From: Candidatus Dormiibacterota bacterium
GTDB lineage: Bacteria > Chloroflexota > Dormibacteria > Aeolococcales > Aeolococcaceae
DNA: 64,000 bases
Assembly (NCBI GenBank): GCA_963833055.1
Contig: CAWHWM010000004.1
Location: 391,643 to 455,642 of the forward strand
Direction: 5' to 3'
In this document: positions 2 through 63,585 of the stretch, one piece after another
How positions within the stretch are numbered: the first letter of the stretch is position 1
Layout: each line of letters starts with the position of its first letter
Made by a program: the position numbers and the translations under genes
Notes under the pieces: generated by a model
What the model was told of the DNA's origin: nothing
Seen by the model: only the letters and a program-made list of their open reading frames with translations
Databases searched by the model: none

Positions 2-841
2 CACGCGGCGCGAACGCTCATCGACGCGGGGCTCGTCACGGTTGACGGCCGTCCGGGCAGGCCTGGACAGCGCATCCGCGAACGTGCTGACGTCGTGGTG
101 ACGCCGCCGGACGAGAAGGTTGCCGCAGCTGCGCGTGAGCGGAACCCAGGCGAGCCGGGGATCGAGTTGCGCATCGTCGATGAGGACGACTGGCTCGCCG
201 TCGTCGACAAGCCGTCCGGCATGGTGGTGCATCCCGCGCCGGGGCATCCCACCGGGACGCTCGCCGACGCGCTCAAGGAACGCGGGACCACCTGGTCGTT
301 GCTCGGCGGTGCGGAACGGGCAGGCATCGTGCACCGCCTCGACCGCGACACGAGCGGCCTGCTGGTCGTGGCCAAAACTGAGGCCGCGCACCGCAATCTT
401 GCCCGGCAGCTCAGCGACCGATCCCTCGGGCGCACGTACTGGGCGCTGGTCCACGGAGGGTTCCGTGAGGACACGGGGACGATCGACGCGCCGATCGCCC
501 GGCATCCGCGCGACCGTCGCCGAATGGCGATCGTCGAGGGAGGTCGTGAGGCGATGACGGACTTCCGCGTGGTGGAGCGGCTTGCAGGGGCCACCGTCCT
601 CGAGCTGTCCCTTCGCACCGGGCGCACGCATCAGATACGGGTGCATCTCGCATCGATCGGCCACCCGATCATCGGCGACTCCGTGTACGGACGGCCGGAT
701 CCGTTGCTCCACCGGCCCGCGTTGCATGCGATGCGGCTCCGGTTGCGCCATCCGGCCGACGGGTCGGAGCGGTCGTACGAGTCGCCGGTGCCGGATGAGC
801 TGGTGGCCGCGGCGAGCCGGCTCCGTCCGGCGGCTGTATGA
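2..841 (+). CDS. rluD: RluA-family 23S rRNA pseudouridine synthase (RluD-like); 5' end lies outside the window
   Basis: Reading frame is open from the window edge. S4-like stretch LIDAGLVTVDGRP, catalytic motif HRLDRDTSGLLVVAK, and C-terminal THQIRVHL. Confidence 0.85.
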   Translation, partial: HAARTLIDAGLVTVDGRPGRPGQRIRERADVVVTPPDEKVAAAARERNPGEPGIELRIVDEDDWLAVVDKPSGMVVHPAPGHPTGTLADALKERGTTWSLLGGAERAGIVHRLDRDTSGLLVVAKTEAAHRNLARQLSDRSLGRTYWALVHGGFREDTGTIDAPIARHPRDRRRMAIVEGGREAMTDFRVVERLAGATVLELSLRTGRTHQIRVHLASIGHPIIGDSVYGRPDPLLHRPALHAMRLRLRHPADGSERSYESPVPDELVAAASRLRPAAV

Positions 842-1133
842 GCGTGGTCGGCAGTGTGTGTGTTGACGCCGTGCGTTCGCGGTGAGATGGCGGTGTGAGC
901 GTGTCCAGCAGTGTGTTTCATAACGGCGCGAGCTTGTCGCGGGATGACGGTGTGAGCGTGCCCTGCGTTGTGTGTTTCTTGACGACGCGAGCCTGTCGTG
1001 GGATGACGGTGTGAGCGTGCCCTGCGTTGTGTGCGTGTTGACGGCGCGAGCCTGTCGTGGGATGACGGTGTGAGCGCGCCCGGCAGGTTCATCGTGTTGA
1101 CGGGGCCGAGTGGCTGTCGGCAAGGACACTGTG
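839..1133. repeat. 57-59 bp tandem array: 4 intergenic units plus a diverged fifth copy that is the gmk 5' end
   Basis: Units at 839-895, 896-952, 953-1011 and 1012-1070 each start TGAGCG and end GGTG. Units 3 and 4 are about 93% identical. Segment 1071-1133 (gmk start) aligns to the unit. Confidence 0.9.
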
Positions 1134-1658
1134 CTGCGGGAACTGTTCCAGCTCGATCCGGCGCTCACGTACTGCGTCTCGTACACCACGCGGCCGCCGC
1201 GTCCGGGGGAGATCGAGGGTGTGTCGTATTACTTCGTGGACGAGCCGACGTTCCGGTCGATGATCGATCGCGACGAGTTCTTCGAATGGTCGACCGTCTA
1301 CGGCGAGCTGAAGGGCCGGACGTTCGAGACCGTCAATAAGGCGATCGCCTCAGGCCGGGACACGGTGATCAAGATCGACGTCCAGGGAGCGGAGAAGGTT
1401 CGCGCCCGAGTGGGGGCACAGGGGACGTACATCTACCTGCTGCCACCGAGCCTCGAGGCACTGGAACAGCGCCTCGTCGAGCGCGCGACCGAGGATCCCG
1501 CCAGCCTTCGGGCTCGCAAGGAGCTGGCCGTCGCGGAGCTGGCCGTCAAGGACACGTACGATCATCAGGTGGTGAACGACGACGCACGGCGCGCGGCGCA
1601 GGAGATCGAGACGATCATCCAGGCCGTGCGGGCTGCCGGTGAGGGGGAGAAGGCATGA
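1070..1658 (+). pseudogene. gmk: Guanylate kinase with an apparent +1 frame disruption inside the P-loop (near 1115)
   Basis: GTG at 1070 gives VSAPGRFIVLTGPSG in frame 2. One extra nt follows, then VGKDTVLREL...VSYTTRPPRPGEIEGVSYYFV in frame 0 (ORF 1110-1658). Length is 589 nt (3n+1). Stop overlaps the coaBC ATG as ATGA. Confidence 0.8.
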
Positions 1659-2877
1659 CGCTGGAGCTCGAGGGCCATCGCGTCCTGGTCGGCGTCGGCG
1701 GCAGTGTGGCTGCGTTCAAGGCGTGCGAGGTGGTGACCGACCTGCGCCGCGATGGCGCCGAGGTGAGGGTCGCGATGACCGAGGCGGCAACGCGCTTCGT
1801 CACCCCGACCTTGCTGCGTGCGCTGAGCGGGCATCGGGTGGCGTCGAGCATGTGGGACGACGATCCCGAAGCCGGACACGGCATGAGCCACCTCGATCTC
1901 GCGTCGTGGTGCGAGGTGCAGGTGGTGGTGGCTGCGTCGGCCGACCTCCTCGCGCGGCTCGCGCTCGGGCTCGCCGGCGACCCGGTCACGGCGACGGCGC
2001 TCGCCTGTCGCGCTCCGTTGCTCGTGGCGCCGGCGATGGAATCGGCGATGTGGGAGCACCCGGCGACGCAGGGCCATGTGGCAACGCTCACCGCTCGGGG
2101 CGGCCGGATCATCGGTCCGGTGCACGGCAGGCTCGCGAGCGGTCACGAGAGCACCGGACGGATGGCCGAGCCCGATGCGATCGTTGCGGTGGTGAGGGAG
2201 TTCCTTGTCAGAGGGGCCTGACCCCAGACTTCTCCGGCCTGCGCTTCGTGGTCACCGCGGGAGGCACGCGGGAGCCGATCGACCCGGTGCGCTTCATCGG
2301 CAACCGGTCGAGCGGCAAGATGGGCAATGAGCTCGCCGCAGCCGCGATCCGCGAGGGCGCGGAGGTCACATTGATCACTGCCGCACCACCTCCGTCTGCG
2401 CAGGCGGGCCTCTCGGTGGTTGCAGTGGAAACAGCTGCCGACATGGACGCCGCCGTGCGCGCCGCGCTCCCCGGAGCGCGCGTGCTGATCATGGCTGCGG
2501 CGGTTGCCGACTGGCGCCCTCGCGATGTCGCAGGCCAGAAGCTCAAGAAGGGTGGGGAATCGATGAGCCTCGAGCTCGTGCCCACCATCGACATCCTTCG
2601 CGCACTCCGCGATGACGAGGTGGCGCGCGGTGTCTACATGGTCGGTTTCGCGGCCGAGACCGAGCACGTAATCGACAACGCGCGGGCGAAGCTCGATGCG
2701 AAGCATCTCGACCTGGTGGTCGTGAATGACGTGTCGCGCGAGGGCATTGGCATGGGGGCGGATGACAATGAGGTGACGGTGCTCGGCCGCGACGGGACGA
2801 TTGAGACCATTGCACGCGCGCCGAAATCTGTTGTGGCCGAGGCGATTGTGCGGATCATCGCGAGCAGGGTGCGATGA
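1655..2877 (+). pseudogene. coaBC: Bifunctional phosphopantothenoylcysteine decarboxylase/synthetase CoaBC, split by a -1 frame disruption near 2212-2220 (alternatively separate coaC and coaB)
   Basis: ORF 1655-2221 is the flavoprotein CoaC domain (VLVGVGGSVAAFKA). The frame of ORF 1639-2877 continues with the CoaB domain (FVVTAGGTREPIDPVRFIGNRSSGKMG). The junction lies at a GGGG run. Length is 3n+2. Confidence 0.8.
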
Positions 2878-3065
2878 CGTTGGGGTTTGCTGTCGGAGCG
2901 AATCGTGCGCGGGATTCTCTCAAGGCGTGGCCGTCTCGATGACGTTCGCATTTGCTATCGGAGCGAATCGTGCGCAGGACTTCTTGACGCGTGGCGGTCG
3001 CGATGACGTTTGCCTCTGTCGTGCCCGAAACGCGGTCACAGCTGCCGCGTGACGCGTACACGTAC
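2871..3065. repeat. 64-66 bp tandem array: 2 intergenic units plus the priA 5' end as a third diverged copy
   Basis: The block GATGACGTT recurs at 2873, 2938 and 3002, and TGACGCGT recurs near the unit ends. Each copy carries an ATG; ATGA overlaps occur at 2874-2877 and 2939-2942. Confidence 0.75.
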
Positions 3066-4995
3066 TCGATCCCTGACGACCTTGCCGAACTGGTGCTTCC
3101 CGGCGTGCGCGTCGAGATTCCGTTCGGCAAGCGATCGATCCTCGGGTACGTGGTGGAGCGAACGGAGGAGTCGGCGTTCGCGGAGGTCCGCGCCATCGAC
3201 GGCGTCATCGACGAACCGCGGCTCCTTCTCGATCACCACATCGCACTCGCGCGGCAGATCGCGGATCGGTACTGCGCGCCACTTGGCGAGGTGCTCCGGG
3301 CGATGCTGCCCAAGGGCGTGCGCACGCGCCCGTCGCGGCGCGCGGGTCCGCGGTCGATGTCACGCGCGGTTGCGGAGGCAGGCGCCGCCGGCCCACCGGA
3401 GCCGCCGCCGATCCTCAATGAGGCGCAACGCGCGGCGGTGGCGCCGCTGCTCGAGTCAATCGCGGCCCGCAAGCACCGCCGCGTCCTGCTCCACGGTGTG
3501 ACCGGGAGCGGGAAGACCGAGGTGTACCTCGCGGGCATCGATGCCGCCCTTGCGAAGGGGCGCGGCGCGATCGTCCTCGTACCCGAGATCGCGTTGACCC
3601 CGCAGATGATTCGCCGTTTCACCGTTCGATTTCCCGGGGCGGATTGCGGTGGTGCACTCGGCCCTCACGGACGCAGAGCGTGCGGCGGAGTGGCGGCGCA
3701 TCCGGAGCGGCGAGCACAGCGTTGTGATCGGCTCTCGCAGCGCCGTGTTCGCACCGGTGGCCGACCTCGGGATCGTTGTCGTCGACGAGGAGGACGCGCC
3801 TGCGTACAAGCAGGATCGCGTTCCGCGGTATCACGCCGTGGACGTCGCGTTGATGCTCGGCGCGCTGTGCGACGCGCCAGTCGTCATGGGAAGTGCGACC
3901 CCACGCGTCGAGAGTTTCTACCGCGCGCACACCGGTGATCTCGAGCTTGCCACGCTGCCGGAACGGGTGAGCGGCCGTCCGCTCCCACCGATCGAGGTGG
4001 TGGATCTGCGCGACGAGTTGCAGGCGGGCAACACCAACGCGCTGTCGCAGACCCTCGATCGTGCGCTGCAGGAATGTCATGCGGATGGCGGCCAGTCGAT
4101 CCTCTTTCTGAATCGCCGGGGCACCTCGACGGTGGTGCTGTGCCGCACGTGTGGCGAGGCACTGACCTGCACCAACTGCAGCGTGTCGTTGGTGCACCAC
4201 GTGGATCGCTCGAGCTGCGACTGCCACTACTGCGGGCTGTCGATCCCGCTGCCGAGTGCATGTCCGTCGTGCGGCTCGCGCACGATCCGCGCGCTCGGCA
4301 TGGGCACGGAGCGGCTCGAACGCGAGGTGCGCGAGCGGTTTCCGGCGCTCCGGCTCATCCGCATGGATCGCGACACCACGCGATCGCGCGACGCGTATTT
4401 CGACATCTATGACAAGTTCCGCCGCCACGAGGCGGACTGCCTCATCGGCACGCAGATGGTCGCGAAAGGATGGGATCTCGGCAATGTGCGTCTCGTCGGC
4501 ATCGTCAACGCCGATACGTCGCTCCACTTTCCTGACTATCGAAGTGGTGAGCTGACGTTCTCGCTGCTCACCCAGGTGGCCGGACGCGCCGGACGTGGCG
4601 ATGAGCCCGCGCGCGTGGTGCTCCAGACGTACAGCCCGGGTCACTACGCGGTCCGGCACGCCACCACGCATGACTATCTGGGGTTTGCGCGCGATGAGAT
4701 CCGCGTGCGCAAGGCACTGCGGTTTCCGCCGTACGCACGGCTCTGCGTCTGCACGTTCGTGCACAAGGAAGACCACGAAGCCGAGATCGAGGTTCGCCGG
4801 GAGGCCCAGCGAGTGTCTGATACACTCGGAATTGGCGACGGGCTCGATGTCCTCGGTCCGACGCCGGCGTTCCTCCACCGCCTGCGCGGCGAATACCGCT
4901 GGCAGTTCACGGTGCGGGGCAACAACATCGAGAGGGCATTTCCTCACCTTCCCAGGGCTCGGGGCTGGAGCATCGACGTCGACCCCGGGGCGTGA
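3003..4995 (+). pseudogene. priA: Primosomal replication-restart helicase PriA with a +1 frame disruption in the G-run at 3636-3639
   Basis: N-terminal ORF 2991-3938 carries Walker [12 protein letters not shown] and [13 protein letters not shown] 3649-4995 carries VVVDEE, Cys-rich zinc-finger motifs (CRTCGEALTCTNC, CHYCG, CPSCG) and the C-terminal domain. Length is 3n+1. GTG at 2991 is an alternative start. Confidence 0.85.
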
Positions 4996-5519: not shown

Positions 5520-6436
5520 GGCTCGTCTTCTGTGGCACTGCGGCATTCGCGGTGCCGTCGCTCCGAGCGTGCGCTGCTGACCACGAGGTGCTCGCGGTGG
5601 TCACTCGGGCCGATCGACTGGGGAACCGGGGGAAGCCGGCGCCGCGTCCCATCGCCGATGCTGCGCATGAGCTCCGCCTGCCCGTCCTGATGCCGCCGAA
5701 GATCGGAGCCCCCGAGGTGGTGCGAGGCCTGGTCGACCTCATCCCGGATTGCGTGGTGGTCGCCGCGTACGGGCAGATCCTGCCGATCTCGCTGCTCGAC
5801 CCGCTGCCGTTCGGCGCGGTCAACGTGCACGCCTCGCTCTTGCCGCGCTGGCGGGGAGCGTCGCCGATCGCCCGGGCGATCCTCGCCGGCGACGCCGAGA
5901 CCGGCGTCTCGATCATGCGCATGGAGGCGGGGCTGGACACCGGACCGGTTTACGCGACGGTGAGGGTGCCGATCGACGATGACGCCACCACGCCGGCGCT
6001 CACGAGCGTGCTCGCGGATCTCGGCGCCGCAGAGCTTGCCGCGGTGCTCAGGGCGCTCGAACATGGAGAGGCAACCGCGACGCCGCAGCCGGAGGATGGC
6101 GTGACCTATGCGGCGCGGCTGACCCGCGAGGATGGACAGGTGGACTGGGCAGCCCGCAGTGCGGTCGAGGTCGATCGCATGGTGCGTGCCCTGCAACCGT
6201 GGCCGGGAGTGGTGGCGCCGATCGATGGTGTGGAGGTCCAGATCCAGGCAGGCGGACCCGTGAGCCCGAACCTGGGGCTGGCGCCAGGGAGCATTGCCGG
6301 CCGCCAGGGCGAATCCGTGGTCATCGCCACTCGCGACGGCGGGTATCGCGTGGACCGGATCACCCCGCCCGGCAAACGCGCCATGGCACCCGCGGCGTGG
6401 ATGCGCGGCCGGCGTGCCGGCGAGGCGCCTCGCTGA
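5516..6436 (+). CDS. fmt: Methionyl-tRNA formyltransferase
   Basis: MRLVFCGT N-terminus, NVHASLLPRWRGASPI motif, and a C-terminal Fmt domain. GTGA overlap with the def stop. Confidence 0.9.
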   Translation: MRLVFCGTAAFAVPSLRACAADHEVLAVVTRADRLGNRGKPAPRPIADAAHELRLPVLMPPKIGAPEVVRGLVDLIPDCVVVAAYGQILPISLLDPLPFGAVNVHASLLPRWRGASPIARAILAGDAETGVSIMRMEAGLDTGPVYATVRVPIDDDATTPALTSVLADLGAAELAAVLRALEHGEATATPQPEDGVTYAARLTREDGQVDWAARSAVEVDRMVRALQPWPGVVAPIDGVEVQIQAGGPVSPNLGLAPGSIAGRQGESVVIATRDGGYRVDRITPPGKRAMAPAAWMRGRRAGEAPR

Positions 6437-9756: not shown

Positions 9757-10991
9757 GGTGTCGCGGGTCCCGGAACCTTGAGCTGGATCACGACACTGCC
9801 GGCCACCGTGAGGCCGGCAGCGACAAGCACAGCGAAGGTCGGCGATATGCCGATGGCCGGTCCTGCGAGCGCGGACCCGATCGGGACGCCTGAGAAGTTC
9901 AACGCCATCGAGACGGCGAATGCCCGCCCGAACCATGCCCGAGCGGTTCGCCGTTGGCGGAGTGAAAAGGCGGGCACGCTCGATGCAGCATCGGCGCCAC
10001 CGGCGATCGCGATGCCCACCGCAATGAGCGCAATTGACGGCACGAGCAATACCAGCATCGAGAGACCCATCACCGCGCCGAGCAACGCCATCGCCTCGCG
10101 CTCGTGTCCCTCCGTCCGCAGGCGGCCCGTGATGAGTGCCGCGGGAACGCCGGTAGCGCCCGCGAGCGCCAGGATGGAACCGACGACGGCGGCATTGCCG
10201 TGCAGGTGGAAGACGACGACCGGGAGGGCGACGATCATGATGCCCCAGCCCACATTGAGCGTCGAGAACCCCACCGCGATCCAGCGTAACGTGCGATTGC
10301 TGACGACGTAGCAGAGGCCGCGCCAGGCTTCGTAGAAGATTCGGGAGGACACCTCGCCGGCGTGCGCGGGCTCAGCGACTCCCTGGAGCGCGATGGCGCC
10401 GACGACAAATCCGATCGCAGCTCCCACGAGGGCGGCTTCGCTGCCGACCAAAGCGATGAGCGCTCCCGCGAGTCCGGGACCGGCGATGCTCGAGACGCCA
10501 TAGAGGACGCTGTCGGCAGCATTGCCGCGATCCCACAGGTCGCGGGGCAGGATGAGCGGAAAGAACGAGCGCGCCCCCGCAATGCTGAGCGTGCTGGTCA
10601 GAGAACCGCCCACCAGCAATGCGTAGAGACCCCAGATGGGAAGGTGGTTCGTCAACGACAGCGTCACGATCGCGGAGAGGCACACCGCCGCAACGCTGAA
10701 GTCGAGCGTCATGAGCCGCTTGCGCCCGTGCCGGTCGAGCAGTGCGCCGGCGATCGGGCTCAGCAGCAACCCCGGAAAGATGAGCAGGAACAGGCTGACA
10801 CCCGCGACGCTCGGCGAGTGATATCGCTGCAGCGCGAAGAGCACCAACCCGACCGTCCACATCTGCGCCGCGGTGCGCGTGAGCAGCGAGCTCACGAGCA
10901 ACTGCCGGAAGCCGGGGACGCGCAGCATCCGCCCGTACGTCGCCGCGGGTGCGACGCCTTGTCCCGCGGTCACTGTGACGTCGCTGGACAT
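9753..10991 (-). CDS. MFS transporter (EntS/Mef-like MFS_3 type)
   Basis: Multi-span hydrophobic protein with an N-terminus typical of this family (FRQLLVSSLLTRTAAQMWTVGLVLFAL). ATG at 10991 is preferred over TTG at 11057 because a promoter-like element lies at 11048-11059. Confidence 0.8.
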   Translation of the reverse strand: MSSDVTVTAGQGVAPAATYGRMLRVPGFRQLLVSSLLTRTAAQMWTVGLVLFALQRYHSPSVAGVSLFLLIFPGLLLSPIAGALLDRHGRKRLMTLDFSVAAVCLSAIVTLSLTNHLPIWGLYALLVGGSLTSTLSIAGARSFFPLILPRDLWDRGNAADSVLYGVSSIAGPGLAGALIALVGSEAALVGAAIGFVVGAIALQGVAEPAHAGEVSSRIFYEAWRGLCYVVSNRTLRWIAVGFSTLNVGWGIMIVALPVVVFHLHGNAAVVGSILALAGATGVPAALITGRLRTEGHEREAMALLGAVMGLSMLVLLVPSIALIAVGIAIAGGADAASSVPAFSLRQRRTARAWFGRAFAVSMALNFSGVPIGSALAGPAIGISPTFAVLVAAGLTVAGSVVIQLKVPGPATP

Positions 10992-11563: not shown

Positions 11564-11690
11564 GCCGGCTGAGACGCAAGCTGCCTGCGGACCGCGTGCT
11601 GGTCGACGCCGGCTGAGCCGCAAGCTGCTTGCGGCCGTGTGCTAGCCGACGCCGGTTTGAGCCGCATATTTGGCACTGATGAGCGTGACG
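11564..11690. repeat. 43-44 bp tandem repeat, about 3 units, the last embedded in the 3' end of the minus-strand lipoprotein gene
   Basis: Units at 11564-11607, 11608-11650 and 11651 onward each start GCCGG(C/T)T(T)GAG. Unit 2 contains the hairpin GCCGCAAGC-T-GCTTGCGGC (11617-11635) and the gene's stop codon. Confidence 0.7.
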
Positions 11691-16106: not shown

Positions 16107-16673
16107 ATGTCTTTGGAGGTTGGCCGGCAGCAGCTGCGAGCGCTCTCCCATCCGCTCCGGGTGCGCATCCTTTCGCTCCTGACCGGGAGGGCGATGTCGA
16201 GCGCAGAGCTCGCCCGCGAGCTCGACATGCGCCATGCGGCGGTGAGCTTCCACGTGCGGCAACTGGCCGCCGCGGGATACCTCGAGCTCGTTGAGACGCG
16301 GTCGGTGCGCGGCGGTCAGGAACGCTGTTACCGCACGCGCGCGGCGGGCCAGGCGGAGTGGTCGCAGGAGGATCCTCGCCTGGTCATCCGCGCGGTCGGG
16401 GAGGAGGTCTCACGCCGCGCGGCGGACTCGCCTCCCAAGGCGTGGCGCCTGTTCGGTGACGCGGAGCTCTGGGTCGATCCGGCGGTCTGGGACGACACGG
16501 TGAAGCGGATCACGGCTGCGATGAATGACCTGCATGCGGCTGCGCTGGAGCCACGGACGCCGGAGGCGAAGCACGTGAGCGCGACGACCATGCTGTTCGC
16601 GATTGAGCCGGGCGGGCTTGGAGAGCCTGACGGGATGGATCCGGGCGCGCCGGCGACGCACGCATGCGGTTGA
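16107..16673 (+). CDS. ArsR-family winged-helix transcriptional regulator with a C-terminal extension
   Basis: LRALSHPLRVRILSLL...SSAELARELDMRHAAVSFHVRQLAAAGYLE. Confidence 0.8.
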   Translation: MSLEVGRQQLRALSHPLRVRILSLLTGRAMSSAELARELDMRHAAVSFHVRQLAAAGYLELVETRSVRGGQERCYRTRAAGQAEWSQEDPRLVIRAVGEEVSRRAADSPPKAWRLFGDAELWVDPAVWDDTVKRITAAMNDLHAAALEPRTPEAKHVSATTMLFAIEPGGLGEPDGMDPGAPATHACG

Positions 16674-16770
16674 TCCCAGCGCGCCAGCAACGCGACATGC
16701 GATCGACGCGGGCGCGCCAGAGACGCAGAACGCGAGCGACCAGGTCGCGCCAAAGAAGCAGAAGCGATGA
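16638..16770. repeat. 33-34 bp tandem array (4 clear units) spanning the arsR stop to the MFS start
   Basis: Units at 16638-16671, 16672-16704, 16705-16737 and 16738-16770 have consensus GA(T/C)C..G.CGCGCC.G..ACGC....GCGA. Adjacent units are 67-71% identical by hand count. The first unit ends in the arsR TGA and the last in the MFS ATGA. Confidence 0.8.
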
Positions 16771-18568: not shown

Positions 18569-18760
18569 GTGCGAACAGTGTGGTGGGCTACTTGCGACGG
18601 TGCGCTGTGCGAACGCGAGTAGCTACATGCGGGCCGTGGGATCTGCGAATGCGAATAGCTACATGCGGCCGTCCGCTCTGCGAACGCGATTAGCTACAGC
18701 GGCCGTCCGCTCTGCGAACGCGAGTAGCTACATGCCACCGTCCGCTCTGCGAACAACTTC
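18569..18760. repeat. 34-38 bp tandem array, about 5.5 units, each containing the palindrome GTAGCTAC
   Basis: Units start at 18569, 18607, 18643, 18678, 18712 and 18747 (partial). Units 3 to 5 are about 89% identical, and the leftmost units are more diverged. There are no unique spacers between units. Confidence 0.85.
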
Positions 18761-37754: not shown

Positions 37755-40700
37755 ATGAGCGACATGAGTGCGTTTCACCCTGCAGTGCGGGCCTGGTTCG
37801 AGCGCCGGTTTCCCGAGGGGCCCACACCCGCGCAGACCGAGGGTTGGCCGCAGATCGCGGCCGGACGCAACACGCTGATCGCCGCACCGACTGGTTCCGG
37901 CAAGACGCTCGCGGGGTTCCTCGTCTGCATCGACGCGCTGTACCGCGCGGCCGAGCGGGGCGAGGTGGTCGAGGGCATGACGCAGGTCGTCTACGTCTCG
38001 CCGCTGAAGGCGCTCGCCGTGGACGTGCAGCAGAACCTCGAGACACCGCTTCGAGAGATCGCGGACGTGGCCGCAGAGATGGGGATGACATTGCCCGCTC
38101 TGCGCGCCGAGGTGCGCACCGGGGACACCACGCAGTCGATGCGTGCGGCGATGATCAAGCGCCCACCGAACTTCCTGGTCACGACGCCAGAGTCGCTGTA
38201 CCTGCTCGTCACGGCGCAACGCAGCCGCGCCGCGCTGCAGTCCGTCACCACCATCATCGTCGACGAGATTCACGCGGTGGCACGCGACAAGCGCGGCTCG
38301 CACCTCGCAGTCACGCTCGAGCGTCTTGCGCGCCTGTGCGTGCAACAGCCGGTCCGCATCGGGCTGTCGGCAACACAACGGCCCATCGAGACGGTGGCGC
38401 GGTTGCTTGTCGGCGCCGGGCCGTCGCGTTGCAATCCGGACGGCAGCCCGCGCTGCGCCATCATCGATGTCGGCCACCGGCGCGCGCTCGATGTCGCCAT
38501 CGAGCTACCATCGGGTGAGCTCGAGGCCGTCGCGTCGCGCGAGCAGCTCGGTGAAGTGCTCGATGCCATCGCAGCGCATGTCAATGCGCATCGCACCACG
38601 CTGGTCTTCGTCAACACGCGGCGTATGGCTGAGCGGGTTGCGCATCAACTGGCGGAGCGCCTTGGCGACGAAGCGGTTGCGGCGCATCACGGCAGCCTTT
38701 CCAAGGAACGCCGTCAACGAGTTGAAGTCGCAACTGCGCGCCGGCGAGCTGCGTGCGCTGGTGGCCACGGCGTCGCTGGAGCTCGGCATCGACATCGGGC
38801 CGATCGAGATGGTGTGCCAGATTGCCTCACCACGCAGCATCGCCACGTTCCTGCAGCGCGTCGGGCGCTCCGGGCACAGCCGCGGCGGGATGCCCAAGGG
38901 CCGCCTGTATCCGATGACGCGCGATGAGCTCGTCGAATGCACGGCGCTGCTTGCCGGAGTGCGAAGCGGCGCACTCGATGCTGTGCATCCTCCGCGCCTC
39001 CCGCTCGACATCCTCGCGCAGCAGATCGTTGCGGAGTGCGCGGCGGACGAGTGGCGCGAGGACGATCTCTTCGAGCTGATGCGCACCGCCGCGCCGTTCG
39101 CCGACCTGACGCGCGTCGACTTCGACCGCATCATCGACCTCGTCTCAGAAGGCATTCCGACGGGTCGCGGGCGCGTTGCCGCCTATCTGCATCGGGACCA
39201 GGTCAACGGCGAGGTGCGCGCGCGACGCGGTGCCCGGCTCGCTGCGCTGACCTCGGGCGGCGCAATCCCGGAGACGGGCGACTACCGCGTGCTTGCGGAG
39301 CCCGATGACACGTTCATCGGCACTGTCAACGAGGACTGGGCGATCGAGTCGTCGGCGGGCGACATCTTCCTGCTGGGAAGCACGTCGTGGAAGATCCGCC
39401 GCGTCGTGGCGGGAACCGTGCGCGTTGTGGATGCGCATGGCGCGCCGCCGTCGGTGCCGTTCTGGCTCGGCGAGGCACCCGCGCGCACCGAGGAGCTCTC
39501 GCGCGAGGTCTCGGACCTGCGGAGCGGCGTCGAGGCACTGCTCGCCGAAGGTGGCGCCGATGAGGCGATCACGTGGGTGGAGCAGCGCGCCGGCGTGGAC
39601 AACGATGTCGCAGCCATGGTGGTGCGGTACCTCGCAGCCGGACGCACCGCGCTCGGCGTGGTGCCGACGCTGGAGCACATCGTGCTGGAGCGTTTCTTCG
39701 ACGACAGCGGCGGGATGCAGCTGGTCGTGCACGCGCCGTTTGGGGGCCGCCTCAACCGTGCTCTTGGACTCGCGTTGCGCAAGCGGTTCTGCGCAACCTT
39801 CGATTTCGAGCTGCAGGCCGCGGCAAGCGACGACTGCGTGCTGCTGTCGCTCGGTCCGCAGCACAGCTTTCCGCTCGAGGACATCCCGAAGTTCCTGTCG
39901 TCCAACACGGTGGAGGAGACGCTGCGGAAGGCCGTGATCTTCGCGCCGATGTGGAATGTTCGCTGGCGCTGGAACCTGAATCGGTCGCTCACGGTGCTCC
40001 GCTTCAAAGGCGGTCGCAAGAACCCGGCGCCGATTCAGCGGCTCGAGTCCGACGACATCATGGGAGCCGTCTTCCCGCAGCTGGTGGCGTGCCAGAACGA
40101 GAACCCGACGGGGCCACTCGAAGCGCCCGATCATCCGCTCGTCAACCAGACGATGTACGACTGTCTCCACGAGGTGATGGACGTCAACTCGCTGCGCGAG
40201 CTCGTCGTGCGCATCGAGCGCAAGGAAGTGCAGATCAGCTTCCGCGACACCGTGGAGCCCTCGCCGCTGGCGCATGAGATCGTGAACGGCAGGCCATACA
40301 CCTTCCTCGACGACGCGCCTCTGGAGGAGCGGCGCAGCCGCGCGATCACCTTGCGCCGCGGGCTGCCGGTCGAGGCGCGCGACCTTGCAGCGCTTGACCC
40401 CGACGCCATCGCGCGCGTGCGAGGCGAGGCAGCACCGGAGCCTCGCGATCACGACGAGCTGCATGACCTGCTGGTCTCGCTCGTGCTCATGCGGCCGGTC
40501 GAGCGATGGACGGCGTCCTTCGAGCAACTGGTCGATCGGGGCAGGGCTCTCATCGTCCGCCACGGGGAGCACGACTTCTGGTGCGCAGCAGAGCGCCTGA
40601 CCACTGTCGAGCGGCTGTGGCCGGACGCACAACGCATTCCCGCCTCGTTCTCACTGCCGCCCGCGCTCGTGGATGGCGCCCTTGAGCCGGACGTCGCGGT

Positions 40701-42015
40701 GGCGGCGATCCTGCGCGGCCACCTCGAGGTCAGCGGCCCGATGACGGCGCAGGAGCTTGTGACGCTGACGAGCCTGAGCAAGACCGAGATCGCTGTCGGG
40801 CTCGCCATGCTCGAGGGCGAGGGCTTTGCGCTGCGCGGCCACTTCGATCCCGGGGTCGAGGACGACCAGTACTGCGCGCGCCGCCTGCTGGTCCGCATCC
40901 ACTCGTACACGCAGCATCGCCTTCGTCAGGAGATCGAGCCGGTCACTCCGCAGGACTTCATGCGGTTCCTGCTCCGCTGGCAGCGCGTTGCACCAGGAAC
41001 CCAACGCGAAGGTCGCGCCGGAGTCGCGGCGACGATCGCACAGCTCCAGGGATTCGAGATCCCCGCCGGCGTCTGGGAGGAAACGGTGCTGCCGAGCCGC
41101 GTCTCCGGGTATCGCAGCGCGTGGCTCGACGAGCTCTGCATGTCGGGCGAGGTTGCATGGGCGCGGTTGAAGGTTCGCGAAGATGCGGATCCGGGCGCTG
41201 CGCAACGCAGCAGCAGCTCGGCGTCGCGTGCGACCCCGGTCACGCTGGTGATGCGCTCGGACCTGCCGTGGCTGCTCCAGTCCGTTCGCGGCGATGCGCA
41301 GCCCGTCGAACCAACCTCGGGCGCGACCCTCGATGTGCTCGATGCGCTGCGCGGGAGCGGCGCCCTGTTCACCAATGACATCGTCACGCTGTCGCGCCGG
41401 CTGCCGAGCGAGGTTGAAGACGCGCTCTGGGACGGTGTGGCTCGTGGCTTGCTCACCGCTGACGGATTCAGCGCAGTGCGCAGGCTGTTGGTCAGTCGCC
41501 GGCTCGGACGCGCTCGCCCATACCACCGCGGTCTGCGCCACGGCGTCAGTGGATACTCGTCGGGCGAGGGCCGGTGGTCGCTCGTGCCGCGGGTGTCTGC
41601 GGTCGCTGAGCACGATGCGCTCGCGGAGGCGATCGCCGAGCAGCTGCTGGTGCGCTGGGGAGTCGTGTTCCGCGACGTGGTGGCACGCGAGACCATCGCG
41701 CTGCCGTGGCGCGATGTGGTCTGGGCCCTGCGTCGCATGGAAGCCCGTGGCACCGCACGCGGCGGACGCTTCGTCACCGGCTTCGCCGGCGAGCAGTTCG
41801 CGTTGCCGGAAGCCGTGGATCAGCTGCGCGAGGTGCGGCGTCGCGAACGCACCAATGAGGTGATCCGCACATCGGCCACCGACCCGCTTAACCTCGCCGG
41901 GATCCTGCTTCCCGGTCCGCGCATCACCTCGGTGCGAACCAACACCGTGGTCTTCGAGGACGGTGTGCCGACCACAAGCGCAAGCCCTGCGTTGGCAGGT
42001 TTCGCGCCGCGCTGA
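37755..42015 (+). pseudogene. lhr: Lhr-type large ATP-dependent DNA helicase (DEAD/DEAH box) with a +1 frame disruption near 38724-38730
   Basis: FHPAVRAWFERRF, Walker A APTGSGKT, DEIH and AAHHGSLSKERRQRVE are in frame 0. QLRAGELRALVATASLELGIDIG, QRVGRSGH and the long Lhr C-terminal region are in frame 1. Total about 1420 codons. Confidence 0.85.
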
Positions 42016-62907: not shown

Positions 62908-63585
62908 TCACGCGCGAGCCGTTCGCTCGCGCTCCGACTCCGCTCGTGCTGAGAACCATGCGAGGGTCGCCGGGAGCAGGAACGGAACGAGCAGCAGCCG
63001 CAGCCAGTCCCAGAGCGTGTTGCCCTGGAAGCCGGTCCAGCCCCAGTTCAGCGCGTAGCCGCCGACCACCACCACCACGAAGATCACCAACCCCGTGATG
63101 CCGACCACCCGCCAGCGGCTCTCGAAGCGCTTGTTCGTCGCGAACCAGAGCGGCAGCGACGCCACCACGATCGGCAGCGCCAGCAGCTCCAGCCAGTCCC
63201 ACAGCGTGTTGCCCTGGAAGCCGGTCCACTGCCAGTTCAGCGCGTAGCCGCCGATCACCAGCACCGCGAACGCCAGGACGACCACGCCGAACACGACGTG
63301 CCACTCCATCATCCAGCGCTGCCGCGTGCGGTACCAGAGCGGCAGTGTCGCGAGCACCACCGGCAGCACGATCACGTGGAGGAGATCCCAGAGCTGGTCG
63401 CTCGGGGTCACGCCGGTCCACGTCCAGTGGAACTCGTACCCGCCGATCAGCGCGATCGTGAGGGCGATCACCCCGCCCGGGAGCACCCATTTGATCAGCG
63501 GCGAGATCGGTTGCGCCGTCGTGTTGCGCGTTCGTGCGAGATCCACGCCGGGAATGATGCCAGTGCTAGCGCAGGGTGTTGGCAA
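62908..63585 (-). CDS. Membrane protein built from three tandem repeats of about 63 aa (GGYxxxWxWTGFxGNTLWDWLxLL...LPLW)
   Basis: The repeats are visible at protein level. Repeats 2 and 3 are also visible at nucleotide level: 63001-63060 versus 63190-63249, offset 189 nt, about 93% identity. Confidence 0.7.
   Translation of the reverse strand: MPTPCASTGIIPGVDLARTRNTTAQPISPLIKWVLPGGVIALTIALIGGYEFHWTWTGVTPSDQLWDLLHVIVLPVVLATLPLWYRTRQRWMMEWHVVFGVVVLAFAVLVIGGYALNWQWTGFQGNTLWDWLELLALPIVVASLPLWFATNKRFESRWRVVGITGLVIFVVVVVGGYALNWGWTGFQGNTLWDWLRLLLVPFLLPATLAWFSARAESERERTARA

Follow-up and report, generated by a model that had tools for sequence, protein, structure and literature searches.

A tandem array between coaB and priA in a Dormibacterota bacterium: a probable lineage-specific minisatellite over an ancestral stop/start overlap

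Known systems and how this locus compares

The described system closest to the array discussed here is that of the mycobacterial interspersed repetitive units (MIRU, MIRU-VNTR), a single family of sequences that occupies about 40-50 loci in each genome and is regarded as mobile (Supply et al. 1997, as summarised in PMC12548453 and PMC3184786). The likeness is one of architecture. Both consist of tandem units of 40-100 bp between co-transcribed genes, both have small unit ORFs that overlap flanking stop and start codons (-4, ATGA), in the present array at coaB/mini-ORF1 and at mini-ORF1/mini-ORF2 though not at priA, and both have empty orthologous sites in relatives and a tetranucleotide repeated at the two ends of the insert. 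The differences are that here each array has its own unit, from its own junction, with no second locus in the sequence searched, that the host belongs to the Dormibacterota and not to Mycobacterium, and that any relay of ribosomes along the units is imperfect, the second unit (U2) being 64 nt long.

Ordinary bacterial minisatellites or VNTRs, which form by tandem duplication through slipped-strand or microhomology events, share other features with our array: both are head-to-tail, locus-specific and homologous to adjacent unique sequence, and in both the older copies are more decayed and are lacking at the orthologous sites of relatives. What sets the present case apart from an ordinary minisatellite is that the array straddles a 4-nt gene overlap, each unit boundary regenerating a start and a stop codon.

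The third relevant system is translational coupling at -4/-1 overlaps (Huber et al. 2019, PMC6728339; 2023, PMC10666635). At both coaB-priA and rluD-gmk the ancestral junction is a -4 overlap of the classic type, and the mini-ORFs now found there repeat that arrangement serially. Coupling through a chain of decayed gene-start copies is not described in PMC6728339 or PMC10666635, and for the present arrays it is putative. Coupling by termination-reinitiation is almost abolished by a spacing of about 20 nt (PMC10666635).

We class the coaB-priA array as a locus-specific minisatellite with MIRU-like architecture, and not as a MIRU. Our reading, to which we give a probability of roughly 0.78, is that it is a lineage-specific minisatellite formed by tandem duplication of a segment of about 65 nt over an ancestral overlap of the coaB TGA with the priA ATG, with no need for junction-specific machinery.

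The array, its genes and the ancestral junction

The window, by which we mean the whole stretch of 64,000 nucleotides analysed, carries the array inside an operon lspA-rluD-gmk-coaC-coaB-priA-def-fmt. The features concerned are as follows.

95-841, plus strand: rluD (Pfam PseudoU_synth_2), stop codon at 839-841
838-1069, plus strand: rluD-gmk array of four units starting at 838, 895, 952 and 1011, of 57, 57, 59 and 59 nt, copies of the gmk 5' end
1070-1658, plus strand: gmk (Pfam Guanylate_kin), GTG start at 1070
1655-2221, plus strand: coaC (Pfam Flavoprotein)
2205-2877, plus strand: coaB, TTG start, phosphopantothenate-cysteine ligase (DFP, PF04127, E=1e-65), overlapping coaC by 17 nt
2874-2938, plus strand: unit U1, 65 nt (3n-1), the more decayed junction copy, with no counterpart in any relative
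2874-2942, plus strand: mini-ORF1, 22 codons, its ATG overlapping the coaB TGA and its own TGA (2940-2942) overlapping the ATG at 2939
2887-3006, plus strand: ORF in the coaB frame, TTG start, 39 codons, its TGA (3004-3006) lying in the ATGA of priA
2939-3002, plus strand: unit U2, 64 nt (3n+1), the better-preserved copy
2939-3052, plus strand: mini-ORF2, 37 aa, TGA at 3050-3052, running 50 nt into priA out of frame
3003-4995, plus strand: priA, ATG start, replication restart helicase (PriA_3primeBD, DEAD, Zn ribbon, PriA_C)

The gene upstream of the array had been taken for coaBC in a sequence-only reading of this DNA, which has to be amended, as coaC and coaB are separate genes and it is coaB that adjoins priA. 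Relatives likewise have a gene for a 188-aa flavoprotein followed by one for a 223-aa DFP protein, with the same 17-nt overlap, and the TTG start of coaB at 2205 matches theirs in alignment. A frameshifted coaBC was rejected on this basis, coaC and coaB being separate overlapping genes in the relatives. The ATG at 3003 is the homologous PriA start, since the PriA proteins of relatives align from residue 1, and the earlier view that the third copy of the repeated block is the real start of priA is thus borne out.

The PriA homologues assign the window to Candidatus Dormibacterota, the best of them being 95-96% identical, and for the closest relative the divergence at four-fold sites is 0.35 at 96% PriA amino-acid identity, figures which show that purifying selection has acted on priA with the array beside it. 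We considered whether a pseudogenised operon might explain tolerance of the array and rejected it on the same figures; further evidence against it is that the frameshifts in coaB and priA (see below) are differences in homopolymer length and that a fourth frameshift is far off in lhr.

The relatives sampled comprise 80 Dormibacterota loci around priA and three more. In about 47 of these loci coaB and priA are joined by a direct ATGA or GTGA stop/start overlap (-4), and this set takes in every locus with a PriA N-terminus at least 85% identical and several at 62-69%. At the rluD-gmk junction also the relatives have a direct (A/G)TGA overlap. The proposal that the ancestral state was a direct ATGA overlap is therefore well supported, in its (A/G)TGA form, at both junctions. 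With about 47 relatives having the direct overlap, the additional 129 nt at coaB-priA is a lineage-specific insertion, and in nucleotide alignments with relatives the insertions are confined to 844-1070 and 2882-2999 of the window. Both arrays are thus lineage-specific insertions into -4 overlaps. One assembly stands for this lineage in the collections searched, and a search of these for same-species contigs, to look at copy-number variation, found none. In five more distant relatives (L044, L047, L055, L059 and L060, at about 5900-6000) PriA has an N-terminal extension of about 17-30 codons that starts at a GTGA overlap with coaB, and these extensions match PriA homologues of 677-690 aa.

Exactly as first read, the block GATGACGTT is found at 2873, 2938 and 3002, the periods being 65 and 64 nt. 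Its count in the 64-kb window is 4, where 0.44 would be expected, and none of 100 shuffles reaches this; the array accounts for three of the four. From the coaB TGA (2875-2877) to the priA ATG (3003) there are 125 nt, which with the overlapping ATGA make two head-to-tail units, and the total insert is 129 nt (3x43). The short sequence ATGACGTT opens U1, U2 and priA alike. U1 and U2 are head-to-tail copies well beyond chance similarity, as expected of a minisatellite, with a global alignment z of 11.0 (0 of 2000 dinucleotide shuffles reach the score) and 88% identity across the first 43 nt. The start of priA, treated as a third unit (U3), is only weakly like them, with z of 3.4-3.6 including the shared ATGACGTT and of 1.3-2.0 once the first 9 nt are left out. 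The sequence said to be common to the unit ends is shared by two of the three: TGACGCGT is present in U2 (2985) and U3 (3050), and U1 reads AAGGCGT there. This octamer shows no enrichment across the window. The GC content of the units is 0.605-0.625 against about 0.70 in the flanks. TRF at a score of at least 30 does not report the coaB-priA array, which is picked up by a separate repeat search.

The two mini-ORFs, their overlaps and the 50-nt overrun into priA were correctly placed by the sequence-only reading. Its statement that each unit carries an ATGA overlap is true of the sequence, and the relay of mini-ORFs that it implies fails at the 64-nt U2, where mini-ORF2 passes the priA ATG out of frame. 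Overlaps of the MIRU type (-4) are thus present between coaB and mini-ORF1 and between mini-ORF1 and mini-ORF2, and are absent between mini-ORF2 and priA. The product of mini-ORF1 is MTLGFAVGANRARDSLKAWPSR, followed by its stop codon. As read from the sequence there are 5 non-synonymous codon changes and 1 synonymous between U1 and U2, and since the differences are mostly non-synonymous the mini-ORFs encode no conserved peptides. Because the insert is a multiple of three, the ORF in the coaB frame (2887-3006) ends on the ATGA of priA, and this ORF is a candidate for an alternative ribosome relay; the chance probability of a 43-codon open frame is about 0.3 by our own estimate, and it is not significant.

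U2 resembles the junction in which it lies. In the best model for it, some 55 nt from the 5' end of priA come first and some 10 nt from the 3' end of coaB complete the unit. When the ATGA was removed and shuffled units were allowed the same choice of best model, U2 scored 12 against this composite, the maximum among the shuffles being 11 (0 of 400 reach it), and the suggestion that the units are copies of the local junction is upheld to that extent. The similarity is moderate, and U1 alone against the junction is not significant (z=1.2), its link to the junction being through U2. The first 13 nt of U2, ATGACGTTCGCAT, are identical to the priA start of eight relatives (L003, L005, L011, L013, L018, L037, L049 and L083), unlike the priA start of the window itself, which now reads ATGACGTTTGCCT. 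Homology of a unit to adjoining unique sequence, as in minisatellites, is thus found for U2, and also for the last gmk unit (Gd) of the rluD-gmk array. The local origin is supported by the moderate similarity of U2, by position and by analogy.

Other arrays and duplications in the window and in relatives

There is no indication that the unit is dispersed. Its 18-nt core is found only at 2893 and 2958 in the 64-kb window, with up to 3 mismatches allowed, the unit pattern has 0 matches in JGI metagenome contigs, and the unit has no second locus in 1.05 Mb of sequence from relatives. A search for the junction pattern gave one match, in L083, which carries the plain ATGA overlap. We therefore reject a dispersed family, the core being unique to the array in the window and the JGI contigs giving no match, and this agrees with the earlier conclusion that no mobile repeat family is involved.

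The units have no inverted repeats, terminal or internal, and are thus not repeats of the MITE or REP type, for which an inverted-repeat or stable stem-loop feature is expected. The predicted RNA fold of 2860-3070 shows no excess of structure over shuffles (z=0.17), and the sole Rfam match is a chance miRNA far below threshold. No sigma-70-like promoter or intrinsic terminator was found in 700-3300, though the units contain TTGACG. With no promoter, terminator, RNA structure or Rfam match, a regulatory element was rejected. A leader-peptide attenuator does not fit, there being no terminator-like sites in 700-3300 and no excess structure. In a literature search we found no paper that brings together Dormibacterota and tandem repeats.

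The array between rluD and gmk is of the same general kind. Similarity of its units to the gmk 5' end climbs towards the gene, with z of 2.0, 2.2, 3.2 and 4.9, the last being that of Gd. Its ORFs form an unbroken chain from rluD to gmk, with overlaps of -4, +1, -4, -4 and -4; the chain includes an ORF of 3 codons (ATG 887, MAV and stop). TRF gives 3.4 copies for this array, against the four units recognised here. Cross-comparisons of its units with those of coaB-priA are at chance (z<=0.1), so that the two unit sequences are indeed unrelated, as had been thought. GATGACG and TTGACG were considered as a motif common to both arrays and rejected, since each comes from the coding sequence of its own gene and the cross-comparison gives z<=0.1.

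The window has a further array at a gene junction:

16679-16767, plus strand: 33-nt units flanked by two co-directional genes, for an ArsR-type HTH protein (stop at 16673) and an MFS_3 transporter (ATG at 16767, within an ATGA)

This array fills a 93-nt spacer and its units resemble the region round the arsR stop. Two others are intergenic. One, at 11564-11666, has 44-nt units, each with a palindrome GCCGCAAGC/GCTTGCGGC, and lies just past a tRNA-like 3' end, and the other, at 18587-18754, has 35/69-nt units in about 4.8 copies between convergent ORFs. TRF also reports a repeat at 62992-63367 with a period of 189 nt, 2 copies and 76% identity, in a minus-strand ORF with high GC3, and this is probably an internal protein repeat.

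Relatives have comparable duplications. The most instructive is in L012, an Illumina/SPAdes short-read MAG of another Dormibacterota species, in which a 26-nt (3n-1) duplication at 5750-5812 straddles the same coaB-priA junction. Its copies, GACCGTCTGCAATGACCCTCACCACG and GGCCGTCCGCAATGACCTTCGCCTCG, are identical at 21 of 26 positions, and the resulting mini-ORF of 9 codons (MTLTTGRPQ) stops on the ATGA of priA. This is an independent event. Elsewhere L013 carries the final 31 nt of smpB, stop included, in 3.4 copies (9861-9966), copies 55 nt long of the hflX 3' end are present in L049 (9903-10018), and in a spacer of L065 there is a 31-nt unit, with the coaB stop in it, in 3.6 copies (958-1068). 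The smpB and hflX arrays are at convergent junctions. In this clade, then, short tandem duplications are frequent, both at gene ends of every kind and in plain intergenic DNA.

The sequence-only reading had argued for a recurring mechanism acting on stop/start junctions, and in that form this is not supported, given the 3'-end arrays in L013, L049 and L065 and the intergenic arrays at 11564 and 18587. With arrays at the 3' ends of genes and in ordinary intergenic DNA, the pattern is explained by duplication as a general process on which selection acts as a filter. The earlier interpretation is thus supported in part: the process is local, non-mobile and recurrent, the recurrence being due to tolerance and not to a junction-specific mechanism.

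Origin, persistence and possible function

The mechanism and order of events that we infer are as follows. Short tandem duplications would arise by slippage or microhomology in many places and would persist where they span a gene end. A duplication of a few tens of bases that is not a multiple of three would, inside a gene, destroy that gene, and duplications that straddle a junction would survive because both genes stay intact. This survivorship filter would account for the position of the array without any mechanism targeted to junctions.

At coaB-priA the duplicated segment would have taken in the last 10 nt or so of coaB and the first 55 nt or so of priA. After the first duplication coaB would have kept its own stop and priA its own start, with both proteins unchanged. 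The spare copy, freed of coding constraint, would have drifted to its present state, about 55% identical to the priA start and with a GC content of about 0.61, and the four-fold-site divergence of 0.35 allows ample time for such drift. A second duplication, now of the drifted unit, would have given U1 and U2, which are about 80-88% identical, the ATGA being re-created at each unit boundary. We looked at a microhomology, CGAT, at both ends as a possible breakpoint and rejected it, as it gives a period of 67 nt and not 65. The units are too diverged for the original breakpoints to be reconstructed.

Since translation is coupled at -4 overlaps, and little of that coupling survives a spacing of about 20 nt, priA should no longer be coupled to coaB across an insert of 129 nt unless ribosomes are passed along it. 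With a 3n-1 unit such as U1 the mini-ORF stops on the next ATG and could hand on ribosomes by termination-reinitiation. Beyond the 64-nt U2, translation of priA would depend on initiation of its own or on the ORF at 2887-3006 in the coaB frame. Among the seven junction units four are 3n-1 (65, 59, 59 and 26 nt) and three are not (57, 57 and 64 nt), which is no significant excess, and selection for a relay is therefore unproven. From the arrangement of the codons a relay function is possible.

Two functional or mobile readings have to be weighed against that of a minisatellite. It may be that the array is adaptive, the mini-ORFs acting as a relay or rheostat that sets the share of ribosomes finishing coaB that go on to translate priA; as part of this reading, unit number and phase would set the level of PriA, possibly varying between strains as in a VNTR. 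We think this unlikely. In its favour, coupling depends strongly on distance (PMC10666635), the rluD-gmk ORF chain is unbroken, both U1 and the 26-nt unit of L012 are 3n-1, and with 129 nt in all the coaB frame still closes on the ATGA of priA; against this, the relay is broken by U2, 3n-1 units are not in significant excess, the U1 and U2 peptides are not conserved, and the direct overlap suffices in all relatives. A MIRU-like mobile repeat, inserting at start codons with its own coupled ORF and resembling priA by coincidence or at the target site only, is in our judgement very improbable. It would account for units of 40-100 bp between operon genes with unit ORFs coupled at -4 (PMC12548453, PMC3184786) and for a filled site where relatives have empty ones, with ATGA as a 4-nt direct repeat on both sides. 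Against it, there is no second locus for the unit in the window, in the 1.05 Mb of relatives or in the JGI contigs; the unit of the neighbouring rluD-gmk array is unrelated and is like the gene downstream of that array, the likeness of U2 to the local junction extends beyond the ATGA, and inverted repeats are lacking at the ends of the units and within them.

There is also the quality of the assembly to consider. Relative to all relatives there is a 1-nt insertion in gmk at 1114/1115 (1112-1120), in the P-loop, where the sequence reads GGC[T]GTCGGCAAG; another in coaB, an extra C in the run 2222-2225 (CCCC for CCC); and a third in priA, an extra G in the run 3636-3639 (GGGG for GGG). These three frame-breaking bases form a striking cluster beside the two arrays. 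Further on, an Lhr-type helicase gene (37755-42015, plus strand) is split over two frames with its Helicase_C profile divided, the ORF at 37755-38927 covering profile positions 10-58 and that at 38326-42015 positions 43-108, which implies a fourth frameshift, predicted near 38.7 kb. A GC3 frame scan for frameshifts across the window was too noisy to be of use. A single large metagenome survey is the source of many of the related assemblies; its MAGs too show breaks of this sort (L049, L042), and we suspect that it used long-read sequencing. Consensus error in long reads is the probable source of the 1-nt indels found in gmk, coaB, priA and lhr, and there is accordingly a small possibility that the 64-nt length of U2 is itself wrong. 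That the whole array is an artefact of error-prone long-read metagenome assembly would fit with the frameshifts of homopolymer type seen in essential genes, of which three lie no more than 2.6 kb from the arrays, and with our having found no second assembly of the lineage. We give it a still fainter chance than a mobile element, as the copies differ by 12-50%, which is beyond what consensus errors produce, the GC content of the units has decayed, and analogous duplications are present in the short-read assemblies L012, L013 and L065.

The minisatellite reading has consequences for how such repeats are viewed. Junction duplication is an ordinary kind of mutation, and the case shows a 4-nt stop/start overlap pulled apart by duplication with neither gene damaged and with the ancestral state clear in dozens of relatives. 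The product automatically looks like a MIRU, which offers a simple origin, without transposition, for repeats of that appearance. A bolder proposition, which we put forward with little confidence, is that in this lineage overlap junctions may have grown, time and again, into arrays of decayed gene starts whose mini-ORFs relay ribosomes, giving strain-variable and phase-dependent control of downstream translation (3n-1 units keeping the coupling and units of other lengths breaking it); such arrays would also provide a local, non-mobile origin for repeats of the MIRU type. In any event the junctions offer ready-made natural constructs, of no unit, one unit or two and of 65 as against 64 nt, for study of the distance and phase rules of termination-reinitiation coupling. 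The arrays also mark sites where gene callers may set starts wrongly, and they are possible VNTR markers for this uncultured soil phylum.
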